From Escherichia phage vB_EcoM_WFL6982: DNA of 64,000 bases. The stretch's first letter is position 1, and every line of letters begins with the position of its first letter. The translations under genes and the position numbers were made by a program. Location of the stretch: the sequence record MK373774.1; one strand, given 5' to 3'. The notes beneath the pieces were generated by a model. The model worked only from the letters and a program-made list of their open reading frames with translations, did not search any database and had not been told where the DNA came from. Of the stretch, positions 7,838 to 28,921 are shown one piece after another.

Positions 7838-9352
7838 ATGACTGACATTAAAGTACATTTTTATGATTTTAGTCACGTGCGCATTGAATGCGACGAAAGT
7901 ACGTTTTACGAACTTCGTGACTTTTTTAGCTTTGAAGCTGACGGGTATAAATTTAACCCAAAATATCGCTATGGGAACTGGGATGGTAGAATTCGACTTT
8001 TAGATTACAACCGTTTGTTACCATATGGACTTGTAGGACAAATAAAAAAGTTCTGTAGCAATATGAGTTATTCTGTATGGATTGACCCTAAAATCTTTGA
8101 GACCGAAGACCTTACCAGAGAAGATTTTGACGCATGGCTTTCTAAACAAGAAATTTATTCAGGCAACGCCAAAATCGAACCACATTGGTATCAAAAAGAT
8201 GCAGTATATGAAGGACTAGTTAATCGTCGTCGAATTTTAAACCTTCCGACATCAGCAGGTAAATCACTAATCCAAGCACTTTTAGCTCGATATTATCTAG
8301 AGAATTATGAAGGTAAAATTCTCATTATCGTCCCTACAACAGCATTGACAACCCAGATGGCTAATGATTTTGTTGATTATCGCTTGTTTAGTCATTCGAT
8401 GATTAAGAAAATTGGCGGTGGTGCTGATAAAGCAGACAAATCTAAAAACGACGCTCCAATTATTGTTGGCACATGGCAAACAGTAGTTAAGCAGCCTAAA
8501 GAATGGTTCTCTCAGTTCGGTATGATGATGAACGATGAATGCCACTTAGCAACAGGCAAAAGTATTTCTTCAATCATCGCAGGATTAAATAATTGTATGT
8601 TTAAATTCGGTTTATCTGGCTCATTAAGAGACGGAAAAGCCAATGTAATGCAGTACGTAGGTATGTTCGGCGAAATCTTCCGTCCTGTTAGCACGTCTAA
8701 ATTAATGGAAGACGGACAGGTAACTGAGCTTAAGATTAACAGTATTTTCCTTCGTTATCCGGACGAATTCACCGTTAAATTAAAAGGTAAAACATACCAA
8801 GAAGAAGTTAAAATTATTACCGGACTAAAACGACGTACAAAGTGGATTGCTCAACTTTCAGTCAAATTGGCTAAGAAAGACGAGAACGCCTTTGTAATGT
8901 TTAAACACGTTACACATGGTAAAGAAATATTTGAAGCTATTAAAGAGCTTGGATACGAAAAAGTTTATTACGTATCGGGTGAAGTTGATACTGAAACACG
9001 TAACGCGCTTAAAGTCATGGCAGAAAATGGTAAAGGCATTATTATTGTCGCATCATATGGAGTATTCTCTACTGGTATTTCAGTCAAGAATCTTCATCAT
9101 GTTATTTTCGCTCATGGTGTTAAATCAAAAATTATCGTACTTCAAACCGTAGGTCGCGTACTTCGTAAGCATGGTTCTAAAGCTGTTGCTACAGTTTGGG
9201 ATCTCATCGATGACGCAGGTGTAAAACCTAAATCATTAAATACTAAAAAGAAGTATACTCATCTTAATTACTTGTTAAAACACGGTATTGATCGTATCCA
9301 ACGTTACGCTGATGAGAAATTTAACTATGTAATGAAAACAATTAATTTATAA
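7838..9352 (+). CDS. uvsW: UvsW DNA/RNA helicase (SF2)
   Basis: 504 aa; Walker A LPTSAGKS, DEAH-like NDECH; TATAAATA at 7801-7808. Confidence 0.9.
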   Translation: MTDIKVHFYDFSHVRIECDESTFYELRDFFSFEADGYKFNPKYRYGNWDGRIRLLDYNRLLPYGLVGQIKKFCSNMSYSVWIDPKIFETEDLTREDFDAWLSKQEIYSGNAKIEPHWYQKDAVYEGLVNRRRILNLPTSAGKSLIQALLARYYLENYEGKILIIVPTTALTTQMANDFVDYRLFSHSMIKKIGGGADKADKSKNDAPIIVGTWQTVVKQPKEWFSQFGMMMNDECHLATGKSISSIIAGLNNCMFKFGLSGSLRDGKANVMQYVGMFGEIFRPVSTSKLMEDGQVTELKINSIFLRYPDEFTVKLKGKTYQEEVKIITGLKRRTKWIAQLSVKLAKKDENAFVMFKHVTHGKEIFEAIKELGYEKVYYVSGEVDTETRNALKVMAENGKGIIIVASYGVFSTGISVKNLHHVIFAHGVKSKIIVLQTVGRVLRKHGSKAVATVWDLIDDAGVKPKSLNTKKKYTHLNYLLKHGIDRIQRYADEKFNYVMKTINL

Positions 9353-9377
9353 GGGCTTCGGCCCTTAGGAGATAAAA

Positions 9378-9611
9378 ATGGTACTTGAATTTAAACAATT
9401 TTTATACGAAGCATCTATTGACGAATTCATGGGTAAAATTGCTAGTTGTCATACCTTAGAAGGGCTTGAAGAATTGGAAGCTTATTATAAGAAACGTATA
9501 AAAGAAACGGAATTAAAAGATACAGATGATATTTCTGTCAGGGATGCCTTAGCAGGTAAGCGTGCCGAACTTGAAGGCGACGATGATGAGGATGAGGAAG
9601 AAGACTTCTAA
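9378..9611 (+). CDS. uvsW.1: UvsW.1 small acidic protein
   Basis: 77 aa directly downstream of uvsW as in T4. Confidence 0.6.
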   Translation: MVLEFKQFLYEASIDEFMGKIASCHTLEGLEELEAYYKKRIKETELKDTDDISVRDALAGKRAELEGDDDEDEEEDF

Positions 9612-9668
9612 TTAAAAAAAGGCCCTTCCAAAAAGGTCGGGCCAAAACCATAGGCAAAAAAGGTAACA

Positions 9669-9836
9669 CTATAGTAAAAGTTTGGTTTCGTTCAATTGCT
9701 CTTCTGAACTTTCTGAAACCGGCATTTGTTGGACATAATTATAACAAGGCCCAGGATGTGCTGGACCTTTGTCTGTTTCAACAACCAATACAGAATCGAT
9801 TGGAGTTTTACAGACAACACAAATCTTATCTGACAT
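9669..9836 (-). CDS. hypothetical small Cys-containing protein (uvsY.-2 position)
   Basis: Track ORF 9669..9899 starts with GTG; internal ATG at 9836 has RBS AGGAGA and a TATAAATA (minus) at 9862-9869. Confidence 0.4.
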   Translation of the reverse strand: MSDKICVVCKTPIDSVLVVETDKGPAHPGPCYNYVQQMPVSESSEEQLNETKLLL

Positions 9837-9861
9837 GATTGTCTCCTTTTGAATATAGTAA

Positions 9862-9869
9862 TATTTATA
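9862..9869 (-). promoter_or_regulatory. late promoter TATAAATA (minus strand) upstream of the small gene 9669..9836
   Basis: Plus-strand tatttata. Confidence 0.4.
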
Positions 9870-9959
9870 AACCCATTTTAATCCGCATTTCTTGTACACG
9901 GATTAAGCAAGCTTCCATCTCTGCTAATAGTCGAAATACTTCTTTATAATCTGTCATAT

Positions 9960-10187
9960 TTACCCCATATCTCTCATATGCATATCAATGCCCATATCTT
10001 TTGTATAAAAATACTCGTCGATGTACCCAGCAAACTTCCCTTTAATATAAAGGACGTCTTCACCACAGGGGTGGTCTGCCAGGATACGAATATCCTGACG
10101 TCGTAGACGATACTTTTCCATTAAGAATTTAATTTCAGTTTCAAATTCTTCATCATTATTAAAGGCATCTTCAATTGAATAACGCAT
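9960..10187 (-). CDS. hypothetical protein (uvsY.-1 position)
   Basis: 75-aa ORF, stop overlaps uvsY. Confidence 0.5.
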   Translation of the reverse strand: MRYSIEDAFNNDEEFETEIKFLMEKYRLRRQDIRILADHPCGEDVLYIKGKFAGYIDEYFYTKDMGIDMHMRDMG

Positions 10188-10600
10188 TATTGTCCCGCTT
10201 CAAATTCTCGCATATCTTGAATATGTTTAAGTGCAAAACTACGAGACTTGACTGCATCAAGTGCACCACTACAGAACTCAAGTAAAATTCCCCAGTATTG
10301 TAAAGTAGTCTCTATTTTAAGCACATCTTTATCTGCGGCCAGGACAGTTTTCATTTCAGATTTCTCATATCGGTCCATACTGAATTCATCACCGTCACCT
10401 CGTCCCGAGTAGTAGTCTAATCTTGCTTTTAGAGCAGTTTTCTTCTGAGTCTCTATACGCAACATTTCTTTACGAATAAATGAGTGCTTACGTAGCCATT
10501 TGCTGTATAACTTAACATTATTCGCCGTCTCGTATTGCAACTTTGTCGTATCAATAGCTAAGTCTGCGTCTAACTCTTCCTGTAAATCTTCCAGCTTCAT
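10187..10600 (-). CDS. uvsY: UvsY recombination mediator
   Basis: Start placed at internal ATG 10600 (MKLEDLQEEL..., 137 aa) matching T4 UvsY; the track ORF start at 10681 would overlap gene 25. Confidence 0.88.
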   Translation of the reverse strand: MKLEDLQEELDADLAIDTTKLQYETANNVKLYSKWLRKHSFIRKEMLRIETQKKTALKARLDYYSGRGDGDEFSMDRYEKSEMKTVLAADKDVLKIETTLQYWGILLEFCSGALDAVKSRSFALKHIQDMREFEAGQ

Positions 10601-25719: not shown

Positions 25720-25752
25720 GTCTATAGTAACACATCCTACAGGAGAGTAAAC
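25720..25752 (-). promoter_or_regulatory. early promoter
   Basis: gtaaac at 25747-25752. Confidence 0.45.
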
Positions 25753-25788
25753 ATCTTTTTAAACTTTTTCTGCCCTAAACGCACAAAA

Positions 25789-25806
25789 GGGAGACCGAAG
25801 TCTCCC
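25789..25806 (-). terminator. hairpin GGGAGAC-UUCG-GUCUCCC plus U-run, downstream of the small basic-protein gene
   Basis: Perfect stem-loop, TTTT follows on the minus strand. Confidence 0.6.
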
Positions 25807-25811
25807 TAAAA

Positions 25812-25991
25812 TTATGCAACAACCTTTCCAAAACGAGAAGCATCATCTCGAAGAACTGCACGTGCTCTGCGCATGATCTTCTCAACTGTTTGATTAATAC
25901 GAGAGTTCGACCCACGCTTGTATCCAGCGCGTTTAGAGGTACCATCAACTTTCTTTTCAACTGCTTTCTTTGCTTTAGCTTGTTTTGCCAT
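25812..25991 (-). CDS. unlisted small highly basic protein (59 aa), probable nucleic-acid-binding
   Basis: ATG 25991 to TAA 25812, translating MAKQAKAKKAVEKKVDGTSKRAGYKRGSNSRINQTVEKIMRRARAVLRDDASRFGKVVA; hairpin plus T-run terminator immediately downstream. Confidence 0.4.
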   Translation of the reverse strand: MAKQAKAKKAVEKKVDGTSKRAGYKRGSNSRINQTVEKIMRRARAVLRDDASRFGKVVA

Positions 25992-26286
25992 TATAAATTC
26001 TCTTTAAATGAAAATGCAGGACTTATTGACATTGCCTGCGCAAGCCCTCAAGGGGAACATAGGTTTTGGATATTTAACGACAGGATAACCATAAACCCGT
26101 CATCATACCAACCACGACTTAGACAGATAACCTTTTTCTGACGCGTGATAGTACAAAATACATTCAAGAGGTACACCGTAAAACTGCCGGGGCCTTAAAA
26201 CTATAATGATTCGCAAATCATTAATCAGACAGTTCGACGGCTCCTCGATTTTCTAGCCGCACTTAAGGTAGCGAATCACCTAAAAC

Positions 26287-26535
26287 TTATTTAAGGGTAA
26301 TAACAAAATGACGTACTGCTTTACGAGCTGCAGAAGCCAAAGGCTTAGCATATTTCAGTTCATCTTTTGCTTCCAGTTCAGAGGCCAAAGCTGCCTGTAC
26401 CGGGTTCAGATGTTTGAAATAATGCAGGATTTCCAGTGCTTCGGCTTCAACATCAATCGACGCGCCGTAGTTTTCGTGACCGTTATTCCATGCGTTTCGT
26501 TGCAGTTCAAGAGCGTGTTGTAATTGTTTAATCAT
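26287..26535 (-). CDS. rIII: rIII-like lysis-inhibition accessory protein
   Basis: 82 aa (T4 rIII 82 aa), adjacent to gene 31 as in T4. Confidence 0.5.
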   Translation of the reverse strand: MIKQLQHALELQRNAWNNGHENYGASIDVEAEALEILHYFKHLNPVQAALASELEAKDELKYAKPLASAARKAVRHFVITLK

Positions 26536-26659
26536 TTTAAATTCTCAATTCGAGATAATATTTAGTAGCCACGTTCGTCTGAATTTCACCTTCTTTCGAC
26601 AAGTCTCTCAGTTGTAGGCTACCGCTTAGAAGAGTGTTCTCTTCATATAGTTATTTATA

Positions 26660-27358: not shown

Positions 27359-27929
27359 AAAAGTTTCGGATTTGTTCCCAATTCAGAGAACGAAGATTAT
27401 TACGAGAGTACTGAATTACTTCAATACCGGCTTGTTTTAGAATGTCTGCCCAATTTTCAGGAGATCGGTCGTATAATTCTGCATATACAACCTTTTTAAT
27501 ACCTGACTGTGTAATAGCTTTAGTGCAATCAGGACACGGAGAAAGCGTCGTATATAACGTAGCACCTTCAATAGAATTACCTTTACGAGCTGCAAATAAA
27601 ATTGCATTCAGTTCAGCATGGATTTCATTATTAGCAGACCATGCACTATGAGCGGCCCGATGTTCTTTAGCCAAAACAAAATTATCCACCCGTCCAAATG
27701 CTGTAGTGCCTTCTTTATGCCCAGCAACGATGACCGGGCTTGGTTTATTCTTCAACCAACCGTTTTCGGATGCATGTTCGCAACAGTTTGTACCACCTGA
27801 AGGAGAGCCATTATAACCTGTAGAAATAATGCGTCCATCTTTTTCAATGACGGCGCCAACTTTCCATGAACAACATTTTGATTCTTGAGAAATCAGATAT
27901 GCAATCTGAAGGTATGTGCTAGCTTTCAT
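27348..27929 (-). CDS. cd: dCMP deaminase
   Basis: 193 aa; zinc deaminase motifs HAELNAI and SPCPDC. Confidence 0.9.
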   Translation of the reverse strand: MKASTYLQIAYLISQESKCCSWKVGAVIEKDGRIISTGYNGSPSGGTNCCEHASENGWLKNKPSPVIVAGHKEGTTAFGRVDNFVLAKEHRAAHSAWSANNEIHAELNAILFAARKGNSIEGATLYTTLSPCPDCTKAITQSGIKKVVYAELYDRSPENWADILKQAGIEVIQYSRNNLRSLNWEQIRNFCGE

Positions 27930-28921
27930 TATTGAACCTTATTAATATAAGTTAACAGCTCTTTAGTTTGTTCCCAACTGATGCACGCATCGGTAACGGA
28001 AACGCCATAGGACATATTATCAGAAATTTTTTGATTTCCTTCATGTAGGAACGATTCTATCATAATTCCTTTGACCAAATCATTAGCTGCTAAATTTTTA
28101 CCAATACCAATTTGATTGCTATAATGCCCATCAGCGTTTGCATGGCTACAGTCAACCATTACATAATGATTCAGACCTACTGCCCTTGCTTTGTTAGAAG
28201 CTTCTTGAATATCAGAAGAATGATAGTTCGGGCCGTTGGTCCCGCCACGCAATACGATATGCGTATTCTGATTACCTTCAGCTTCAACAATGCCTACAGT
28301 ACCATCGACGTCCATACCCATATACCGATGAGGCCAGGCGGCACTATACATCGCGTCTATAGCTACTTTAATAGAACCATTGGTTGCGTTCTTGAAGCCT
28401 ACGCACATCGGTAGACCTGAAGCAATTTCACGATGTGTCTGACTTTCAGTCGTACGGGCGCCAATAGCAACCCATGAGAAAATACCAGAAAGATACTTAA
28501 TCGTGAATGGGTCTAATACTTCAGTTGCTAATGGAAGTCCCATACGTAGAAGTTTACGACACAATGTTCGTGCAACTATAAGACCGTGGTTCATATCAAA
28601 ACTTCCGTCAAGATATGGATCATTTACAAGACCTTTCCAACCTACGGTAGTTCGAGGCTTTTCAAAATAAACGCGCATCACTAACAGAACATTAGGAAGA
28701 CGAGTTTGAAGTTCAGCCAGACGTTTGCCGTATTCAACAGCAGCAATAGGGTCATGAATTGAACAAGGACCTACAACGATAAGTTTGCGTGGGTCTTCAC
28801 CATTCATAATCGAATTAACTTGTTCGCGATGAGAAGCCACTTGTGATGCGTAAGCTTCCGACAAAGGAATAATCTCAGCCAGTTCTTTTGGAGAAATAAG
28901 TTTTCCGACGACAGGTAACAT
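27929..28921 (-). CDS. 3-deoxy-D-arabino-heptulosonate-7-phosphate (DAHP) synthase, AroG/AroF/AroH class
   Basis: 330 aa; long collinear matches to E. coli AroG (GPCSIHD, VMRVYFEKPRTTVGWKGL, GARTTESQ.HRE.ASGL, KVAIDA, IVLRGG, MIESFL.EGNQ); RBS; TAATG-coupled to cd. Confidence 0.85.
   Translation of the reverse strand: MLPVVGKLISPKELAEIIPLSEAYASQVASHREQVNSIMNGEDPRKLIVVGPCSIHDPIAAVEYGKRLAELQTRLPNVLLVMRVYFEKPRTTVGWKGLVNDPYLDGSFDMNHGLIVARTLCRKLLRMGLPLATEVLDPFTIKYLSGIFSWVAIGARTTESQTHREIASGLPMCVGFKNATNGSIKVAIDAMYSAAWPHRYMGMDVDGTVGIVEAEGNQNTHIVLRGGTNGPNYHSSDIQEASNKARAVGLNHYVMVDCSHANADGHYSNQIGIGKNLAANDLVKGIMIESFLHEGNQKISDNMSYGVSVTDACISWEQTKELLTYINKVQ

Follow-up and report, generated by a model that had tools for sequence, protein, structure and literature searches.

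Structured RNA modules in the spacer between rIII and gene 30.9 of T4-like phages

The rIII-30.9 spacer is a mosaic of RNA modules

We analyzed the 295-nt spacer between rIII and gene 30.9 (25992-26286, minus strand) in Escherichia phage vB_EcoM_WFL6982, a T4-like Mosigvirus. The sequence examined was a 64,000-nt stretch of record MK373774.1, called the window here, and all positions refer to it unless another sequence is named. We found that the spacer is composed, in mosaic fashion, of modules (M0, T, D, B, and C) that lie on the gene-sense strand and are inherited separately; a sixth module, A, is not present in the window. Two of these modules, the bulged hairpin T and the pseudoknot B, are maintained by compensatory changes. 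On balance we favor a model in which the spacer consists of autonomous structured RNA modules followed by a leader that occludes the ribosome-binding site of gene 30.9.

We extracted 28 spacers for comparison, 25 of them from IMG/VR loci and three from annotated genomes. rIII and 30.9 were neighbors in every case, and the distance between them ranged from 120 to 416 nt. The module content differs among lineages. The window phage has the order M0-T-D-B-C, T4 has M0-T-B-C, Yersinia phage fPS-2 has M0-T-A-B-C, JS98 has T-A-B-C, and Klebsiella-type phages have an arrangement of hairpin-B-M0-A-C. The T4 spacer (130541-130784 in T4) is 244 nt long because it is missing module D. Searched by itself, the spacer sequence has matches in 775 phage records. 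Conservation of T, B, and C greatly exceeds that of the synonymous sites of the neighboring gene: between the window phage and T4, these modules are 97.7%, 98.0%, and 98.5% identical, respectively, while rIII is 85.5% identical overall and 66.3% identical at third-codon positions. The corresponding value for M0 is 65.5%.

An initial annotation of this DNA had described the spacer as a structured non-coding region and proposed a comparison of its folding stability with shuffled controls. The spacer as a whole did not stand out in this comparison (minimum free energy z-score of -0.55, with 59 of 200 shuffles folding as well), so we analyzed it module by module. Module T did stand out (z of -2.59). 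The prediction of a structured RNA thus holds in the sense that T and B covary as expected for RNAs under selection, but not in the sense that the entire spacer is unusually stable. The significance of the spacer rests on conservation and covariation rather than on folding energy.

Covariation supports a bulged hairpin and a pseudoknot

Module T (26168-26246, minus) forms a bulged hairpin of about 80 nt with the layout GAGG-A-GCCGU-C-GAACUGUC ... UAAUGAUU(UGCG)AAUCAUUA ... GGCAGUUU-U-ACGGU-GUA-CCUC. The inverted repeat TAATGATT/AATCATTA (26204-26211 and 26216-26223, with tgcg between the arms) makes up the tip of this hairpin. When 86 nt were folded, the minimum free energy structure was the same as the centroid structure, and only one of 200 shuffles was as stable. 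An alignment of 12 distinct sequences supports 25 pairs that are 99% paired, four of which have changed on both sides, and this degree of covariation was reached by none of 500 shuffles. One pair runs through G-C, G-U, and A-U. The metagenomic locus L075 shows compensatory changes in two tip pairs and one lower-stem pair. On the opposite strand, three invariant G-U pairs would become C-A mismatches, indicating that the fold belongs to the gene-sense RNA. These results demonstrate that module T is kept as a hairpin by compensatory changes.

Module B (26055-26108, minus) is an H-type pseudoknot of about 50 nt that we recognized through covariation and pairing tests. It consists of a hairpin of 8-10 pairs with an 11-nt loop, an A-rich linker, and a stretch that pairs back to the loop. 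In the window phage, stem 1 is formed by UGAUGACGGG (26105-26096) with CCUGUCGUUA (26084-26075), and stem 2 is formed by the loop sequence GGUU (26090-26087) with AACC (26065-26062) after the linker. The partners in stem 2 differ by lineage: the GGUU/AACC pairing of the window phage is UUGGUU/AACCAA in Klebsiella types, and further pairs are GUAGU/ACUAC, AGGUU/AACCU, GAUGG/CCAUC, GUGAG/CUCAC, and CAAGGUU/AAUCUUG. Each loop matched its own tail better than permuted partners (3/20000). In an alignment of 28 sequences, 79.8% of cells were paired, compared to 31-48% for slid partners. Double changes occupied 52 cells versus 21.5 in shuffles (0/500), and this is a conservative figure, given that one lineage is offset by one column in the alignment. 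The G-U pairs in module B fit the sense strand only. By folding energy alone, B is borderline (z of -1.74). A profile search found exactly one copy in each spacer searched and one in the 64-kb window, and a covariance model agreed. With the more distant L200 included, all but one of the examined spacers hold B. We conclude that module B is an H-type pseudoknot kept by compensatory changes.

Modules T and B appear to be undescribed within Rfam 15, GenBank annotations, and the searchable literature. The Rfam comparison proposed in the initial annotation returned no family: nothing matched 25992-26286 even at E-values up to 10, and nothing matched 12 related loci at E-values up to 1. ARAGORN predicted 0 tRNAs in the window, and no Rfam tRNA model matched the spacer. 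GenBank records that match the spacer label it 'None' or 'hypothetical protein' and carry no RNA annotation. We found no paper on RNA in this spacer, but these motifs could be among the 10,006 viral structured-RNA candidates of a published catalogue (PMC10690425).

Modules occur without gene 30.9, and gene 30.9 occurs without modules

We compared these loci with sites where the modules lie outside the rIII-30.9 interval. In the metagenomic phage contig L095 (6797-6854, minus), module B alone exactly fills a 58-nt spacer between the genes for tRNA-Asp and tRNA-Pro in a cluster of 12 tRNAs. This contig encodes terminase, portal, and HNH genes and is not T4-like there; the 12.5 kb that we examined contain neither rIII nor 30.9. 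It surfaced in a scan of the collection with CGTTAAATANNCAAAAC, a motif that is too unspecific and whose matches are mostly chance. We also observed that a gene beside this tRNA cluster (8936-10357, minus) codes for a 473-aa protein that matches PHROG 850, annotated 'RNA-binding protein' (E 2.4e-143). In a second contig, L205 (1358-1412), module B lies 220 nt after tRNA-Ile and, as judged by eye, adjoins a terminase-like open reading frame (ORF).

Phage phi92 (Justusliebigvirus; L197 1794-2139) has an M0-T-B-C block between tRNA-Gly and tRNA-Gln, without gene 30.9. This block is 98.8% identical to T4, and behind it come the final 27 codons of rIII; the coding sequence labeled 'putative rIII' in GenBank is a fragment. 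A 13-nt direct repeat, TTTATTGGAGATT, flanks the block and overlaps the 5' end of tRNA-Gln. From its sequence, the insertion looks like the integration of a circularized fragment. The converse arrangement is seen in L200, the most distant relative found that carries 30.9. The spacer in front of its 30.9 (1076-1216) consists of a terminator (GGACUCUUAGGAGUCC followed by U6) plus a sigma-70 promoter (TTGACA-N17-TATTAT), and it contains no RNA modules.

These arrangements bear on the possibility that T, B, and C together form a 5' untranslated region for 30.9 that acts only in cis, either as a set of ribonuclease barriers once the transcript has been cleaved or as an operator to which gp30.9 binds. 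Such a role would fit the position of B and C, which precede 30.9 in all T4-like loci where they are present, the very basic character of gp30.9, and the way in which C abuts the ribosome-binding site. It would also have a precedent, by analogy, in the leader of T4 gene 32. However, B lies anywhere between about 60 and about 290 nt from the 30.9 start, and further modules can come in between. B resides between tRNA genes in L095, phi92 retains the block without 30.9, and L200 retains 30.9 without the modules. Because B moves relative to the start codon, is found without the gene, and is missing from a locus that has the gene, we rank autonomous domains above a leader that acts only in cis, which we consider possible but unlikely.

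Module C forms a leader beside the ribosome-binding site

Module C (25992-26060, minus) is the leader segment beside the 30.9 ribosome-binding site. It includes the hairpins CCCC-UUGA-GGG (26055-26045) and GCAGG(CAAUGUCAAUAAGU)CCUGC (26039-26016), and the sequence AUUUUC (26015-26010) pairs with the Shine-Dalgarno region GAGAAU (26002-25997). The small GC hairpin covaries (CCCU/AGGG, GCCU/AGGC, UCC/GGA). The stem of the second hairpin changes from GCAGG/CCUGC to GAACUGG/CCAGUUC in L023 and L028, and the 14-nt loop that it encloses is retained. For about 12 of the 19 distinct leaders, we predict a small stem that covers or adjoins the Shine-Dalgarno sequence (UUUUC/GAGAA here; CUCC/GGA(A)G elsewhere), and the conserved loop of T4-type C modules is also complementary to the start-codon region of 30.9. 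The energy of module C alone is not significant (z of 0.11). If C occludes the Shine-Dalgarno sequence and the start codon, translation of 30.9 would be damped or conditional. In the record for phage ATK47 (L001 2089-2098, approximately 26002-26011 in the window), the 10 bases before the 30.9 start are labeled 'ori type 2 repeat'. We found no second copy of this sequence and no support for an origin function.

Module M0 (26249-26280, minus) is poorly conserved, forms a weak 4-bp hairpin (z of +0.80), and is absent from JS98 and L075. It holds the TGATTCGC arm of a second inverted repeat, TGATTCGC/GCGAATCA (26207-26214 / 26271-26278). Module D (26109-26159, minus) is a hairpin, CAGA(AAAAGGUUA)UCUG within CACG...CGUG, with a folding z-score of -0.76. 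It is represented by 5 distinct sequences only, with CAGA/UCUG changed to CAGC/GCUG in L005 and L026. On visual comparison, D looks like the 3' half of B (GGUUAUCUGUC) and may therefore be a decayed duplicate.

The initial annotation combined several of these sequences into a switch, in which mutually exclusive hairpins and a palindromic operator would regulate the small downstream gene. All of the named inverted repeats exist, as does CCCCTTGAGGG, and both alternative pairings can be drawn in the window phage. The mutually exclusive pairing is not conserved, however. The upstream arm lies in M0, a module only 65% identical to T4, and T4's 8-bp pairing has two mismatches (sequences compared by eye); JS98 and L075 lack M0 yet keep the T hairpin, even with covariation. 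The near-palindromic 12-mer proposed as an operator, GCCTGCGCA/TGCGCAAGC (26034-26045), is present, but it is the foot of the GCAGG...CCUGC hairpin, a stem that covaries to ACUGG...CCAGU elsewhere. The MluI palindrome ACGCGT likewise exists within module D, but it is missing in T4 and reads CATGCGT in other phages. Neither site is conserved as a palindrome, and we regard such a switch as very improbable.

Transcription likely reads through from rIII

We inspected the spacer and its surroundings for transcription signals. The perfect tetraloop terminator that the initial annotation placed directly after the 59-codon ORF is clearly recognizable. It has the form AGGGAGAC-UUCG-GUCUCCCU followed by UUUUGUG (25780-25807, minus). 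Its perfect 8-bp stem (AGGGAGAC-TTCG-GTCTCCCT in DNA, 25788-25807) gave a z-score of -4.44, and 0 of 200 shuffles were as stable. The records for phages G53 and ATK47 annotate a terminator after 30.9, and T4 30.9 is followed by the same terminator as the window gene. A strict terminator scan, which requires 5 U in 8, misses this element because only four U follow the stem. Neither the window sequence nor the scan showed anything terminator-like between rIII and 30.9. Read-through from rIII into 30.9 is expected because no terminator separates the two genes.

The rIII gene has early, middle, and late promoters (PMC9409239). Pattern matching located a late promoter consensus, TATAAATA, upstream of rIII (26652-26659, minus), which is the likely source of read-through transcripts, and a sigma-70-like site at 26583-26555. 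A pattern scan found no MotA-box middle promoter or late promoter inside the 295-nt spacer. The same approach identified a candidate early-type promoter, TTTACG-N16-TATTTT (26155-26182, minus), whose -35 element falls within the 3' arm of module T. This is the promoter-like site of the initial annotation (TTTAC-N16-TATTTT, 26182-26155). A -10-like TAnnnT is found at the right spacing in JS98, fPS-2, and L007, but the -10 element is deleted in T4. A further early promoter match, GTTTAC-N17-TACTAT, lies just after the 30.9 terminator (25724-25752, minus), and the fPS-2 record annotates the same GTTTAC-type element as 'predicted early promoter'. The consensus for PeSL cassettes is TTTACW-N17-TAYWAT (PMC4122927). 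The 30.9 terminator together with GTTTAC-N17-TACTAT (25807-25724, minus) fits the definition of a PeSL cassette in front of 30.8.

The presence of a true PeSL next to 30.9 raises an explanation at the level of DNA, in which the spacer is a set of recombination cassettes (PeSL-like stem-loop/promoter units) and promoter remnants whose conservation comes from frequent exchange. The mosaic pattern of presence and absence, the circle-type insertion with its 13-nt repeat in phi92, the early-promoter-like site that overlaps T, and the plain PeSL in L200 are all consistent with this idea. The compensatory changes and sense-only G-U pairs in T and B instead point to selection on RNA pairing, and for this reason we rate a process acting on DNA alone as improbable. 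T and B also carry neither a U-run nor a promoter spacing that is their own, and each module is single in each genome.

Gene 30.9 encodes a conserved small basic protein

Based on its sequence and synteny with T4, the 59-codon ORF behind the spacer (25812-25991, minus) is an ortholog of T4 gene 30.9. The initial annotation had called this ORF an unlisted small gene. The gene is real, and it was absent from the list of ORFs because of a 60-aa cut-off, but it is already catalogued and thus not new. The positions given there for the rIII stop, the 59-codon ORF, and the 295-nt gap all agree with our ORF calls, which place rIII at 26287-26535 (minus). The product of the ORF (6.6 kDa) matches PHROG 1427, a family without an assigned function (E 2.4e-31, residues 1-57), and shares 96% identity over 56 aa with T4 gp30.9 (NP_049823, 58 aa; UniProt P17310), whose gene lies 244 nt downstream of rIII. 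tblastn detected 30.9 in 1006 phage records, with hosts that include Escherichia, Klebsiella, Enterobacter, Yersinia, and Serratia. At every locus we looked up, 30.9 is positioned between rIII and 30.8 on the same strand, and the distant members P0070 and P0074 have the same cd-31.1-31-rIII-30.9-30.8 arrangement. A profile search of 1.8 billion representative proteins returned 17 matches to gp30.9, one of which is a repetitive false positive. The core of the protein, SKRAGYKRGSNSRINQTVEKIMRRARAVLRDDASRFGK, is nearly invariant among homologs.

gp30.9, described as Lys/Arg-rich in the initial annotation, is very basic, but its 59 residues include 18 basic ones (10 K + 8 R; isoelectric point of 11.35) rather than 15. 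Structure prediction, another check proposed there, gave a disordered basic tail (residues 1-29) and a single helix (residues 30-54) when AlphaFold2 was run with 28 homologs (mean predicted local distance difference test score of 66). No Pfam family scored above threshold. The protein has no PDB relative by sequence, with only an insignificant match to a SlmA helix (E 0.12). Its composition alone makes nucleic-acid binding plausible. The T4 30.9 transcript has been classed as early, and the protein is unclassified (supplement to PMC9697503). In L075 (metagenome contig QZLZ01027750.1, reverse strand, ~870-900), the 5' half of 30.9 and its start codon are missing, and the small hairpin of module C is joined to codon ~24. 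This may be a natural deletion or an assembly artefact; 30.9 may be dispensable, given that L075 is without its 5' half.

UniProt describes an older, over-extended form of the T4 protein as 'Uncharacterized 11.1 kDa protein in Gp30-rIII intergenic region'. The N-terminal extensions upstream of the 30.9 start are wholly different between phages while the MAKQ start is constant, which indicates that the 59-aa form is correct. A second reading frame was noted in the G53 record, where a 37-aa coding sequence with a TTG start covers modules T and D (window 26103-26216, minus; L003 1885-1998). This coding sequence is disrupted in T4 and is most likely spurious. Another explanation would be hidden small protein genes in the spacer, such as the 37-aa G53 sequence or the 97-aa extended form of T4 30.9, and such ORFs do exist in single genomes. 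We find this explanation hardly credible. Neither strand of the spacer carries a conserved ORF, and 1-2 nt indels and whole-module deletions break every frame. The ATGATG sequence in module B meets a stop after 3, 10, or 16 codons depending on the phage (sequences read by eye).

A kissing-loop RNA occupies the spacer in other phages

The sixth module, A, is a 136-nt element that lies outside the window, in the rIII-30.9 spacer of ~407 phage records. It has at least 92% identity across genera and is found in many Klebsiella, Enterobacter, and Dhakavirus phages and in some Tequatrovirus phages (for example, L010 1252-1387, L049 701-835, and L198 2188-2323). RNAalifold predicted 37 pairs, 17 of them with compensatory changes. 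When a 6-bp kissing interaction between two hairpin loops was included, 98.8% of positions were paired and 19 of 40 pairs had changed on both sides (0/500 shuffles). The resulting model contains two kissing hairpins, a GNRA hairpin, a closing helix, and long invariant single strands. True copies of A occur only in T4-like contigs and are unannotated, and no Rfam family matched the element. We considered homology between T and A and rejected it, as a covariance model of T gives no match.

Genomic context of the spacer

The 901 bases around the locus match Escherichia phage vB_EcoM_G53 and further Mosigvirus genomes at 100% identity and ~600 other T4-type phages at 80-90%. The minus-strand gene order in the window is DAHP (3-deoxy-D-arabino-heptulosonate 7-phosphate) synthase, cd, 31.1, 31, rIII, the 59-codon ORF, 30.8, and 30.7. 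The DAHP synthase gene (27929-28921, minus) codes for a 330-aa AroG-like protein and is directly upstream of the gene for dCMP deaminase. It is annotated in this way in ATK47, and T4 has cd.1 in its place.

Discussion

We propose that M0, T, D, B, and C would be independently folding and independently inherited RNAs on the gene-sense strand rather than parts of one regulated switch. Their transcription most likely occurs by read-through that starts at the rIII promoters. The weak internal early-type promoter may add transcripts, and all of these transcripts would end at the UUCG-tetraloop terminator after 30.9. T and B would represent self-contained functional RNA domains and not operators specific to 30.9; they could be stable RNAs that are cut from the transcript, or they could be platforms for proteins. 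The last ~65 nt, corresponding to C, would hold the 30.9 Shine-Dalgarno sequence and start codon in weak local structure.

Several observations weigh against this model. The alignment of T is shallow (12 distinct sequences), and most of its compensatory changes come from L075 alone. Stem 2 of B has only 4 bp in the window phage and in T4, and most of its support is drawn from other lineages. At about -3 kcal/mol, the hairpins predicted at the Shine-Dalgarno sequence are weak. Recent recombination, and not constraint, could be part of the reason why T4 and Mosigvirus are so similar. L095 and L205 may be one lineage, and the phi92 block says little about function or selection because its transfer was recent. 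L200 has no copy of B and has 30.9 without any of the modules, so none of them is required for 30.9. We found no map of transcript ends or processing for the spacer, and PMC9697503 gives only the 'early' class.

An extension of the model is that the spacer serves as an 'RNA island', a fixed site that swaps autonomous non-coding RNAs (T, B, and the 136-nt kissing-loop RNA in ~400 phages) that are released and act in trans. We offer this as a tentative possibility. Candidate targets would include ribosomal protein S1 and ribonucleases, or the RNAs might be decoys against RNA-targeting defenses. They would be akin in function to the unexplained small RNAs of phage tRNA clusters. When we searched for loop targets within the window, the conserved loops matched only their own loci.

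T4 is the best-studied lytic phage, yet its 244-nt rIII-30.9 gap is without an assigned function, and folds kept by compensatory mutation are found there. T and B offer specific RNA candidates for testing in a model system with routine procedures for deletion, Northern blotting, and structure probing, and the RNA of module A is widespread in Klebsiella and Enterobacter phages of the therapeutic type. If the modules act in trans, rnaC and rnaD would be joined by a further class of phage non-coding RNAs. Action in cis would account for the expression of a conserved small basic protein.

We compared the locus to known systems. The T4 gene 30.9 system is its direct counterpart: the window gene has the same length, position, and terminator, and nothing of substance differs. 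The T4 RNAs rnaC and rnaD (species 1 and 2) are structured phage RNAs of 50-140 nt, and their setting recalls the presence of B and of the phi92 block among tRNA genes. In T4-like phages, however, the modules are not beside tRNA genes. A search of the T4 tRNA/rnaC-rnaD region with nhmmer returned nothing, as did the A and B profiles; the T covariance model gave E-values above 4 and did not fall on rnaC or rnaD. We rejected a resemblance of M0 and T to T4 rnaD that was noted by eye (UCGCUACC..UAAGU, an AU-rich hairpin with a UUUGCG loop, and a 3' ACGGYGYACC), as neither nhmmer nor the covariance model supported it.

The modules resemble PeSLs (PMC2839356, PMC4122927) in being intergenic stem-loops with mosaic gain and loss of neighboring DNA, and an early-promoter-like motif overlaps T. 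PeSLs are short, terminator-like stems repeated at many genomic sites, whereas T and B are larger, are single-copy, have no U-runs, and show covariation of the RNA type. As a PeSL, T would be atypical. It overlaps TTTACG-N16-TATTTT but does not look like a terminator; a distance of 155 nt separates it from the gene, and the -10 element is absent from T4. The motifs of M0, B, and C each occur once in the 64-kb window, unlike multi-copy PeSLs. The topology of B is also that of the preQ1-I riboswitch aptamer, in which a hairpin is followed by an A-rich tail whose end pairs with the loop. B is larger, finds no Rfam match even at E-values up to 10, and has no link to queuosine genes.

In T4, gp32 nucleates on a pseudoknot in the leader of the gene 32 mRNA, which sets a precedent for a translational operator of this kind. 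Module B differs from the gene 32 pseudoknot in that it has no sequence relation to it, lies at a variable distance from the start codon, and occurs without gene 30.9. What the two have in common is an H-type pseudoknot, followed by an A/U-rich stretch, upstream of the gene for a protein that looks like a nucleic-acid-binding protein.

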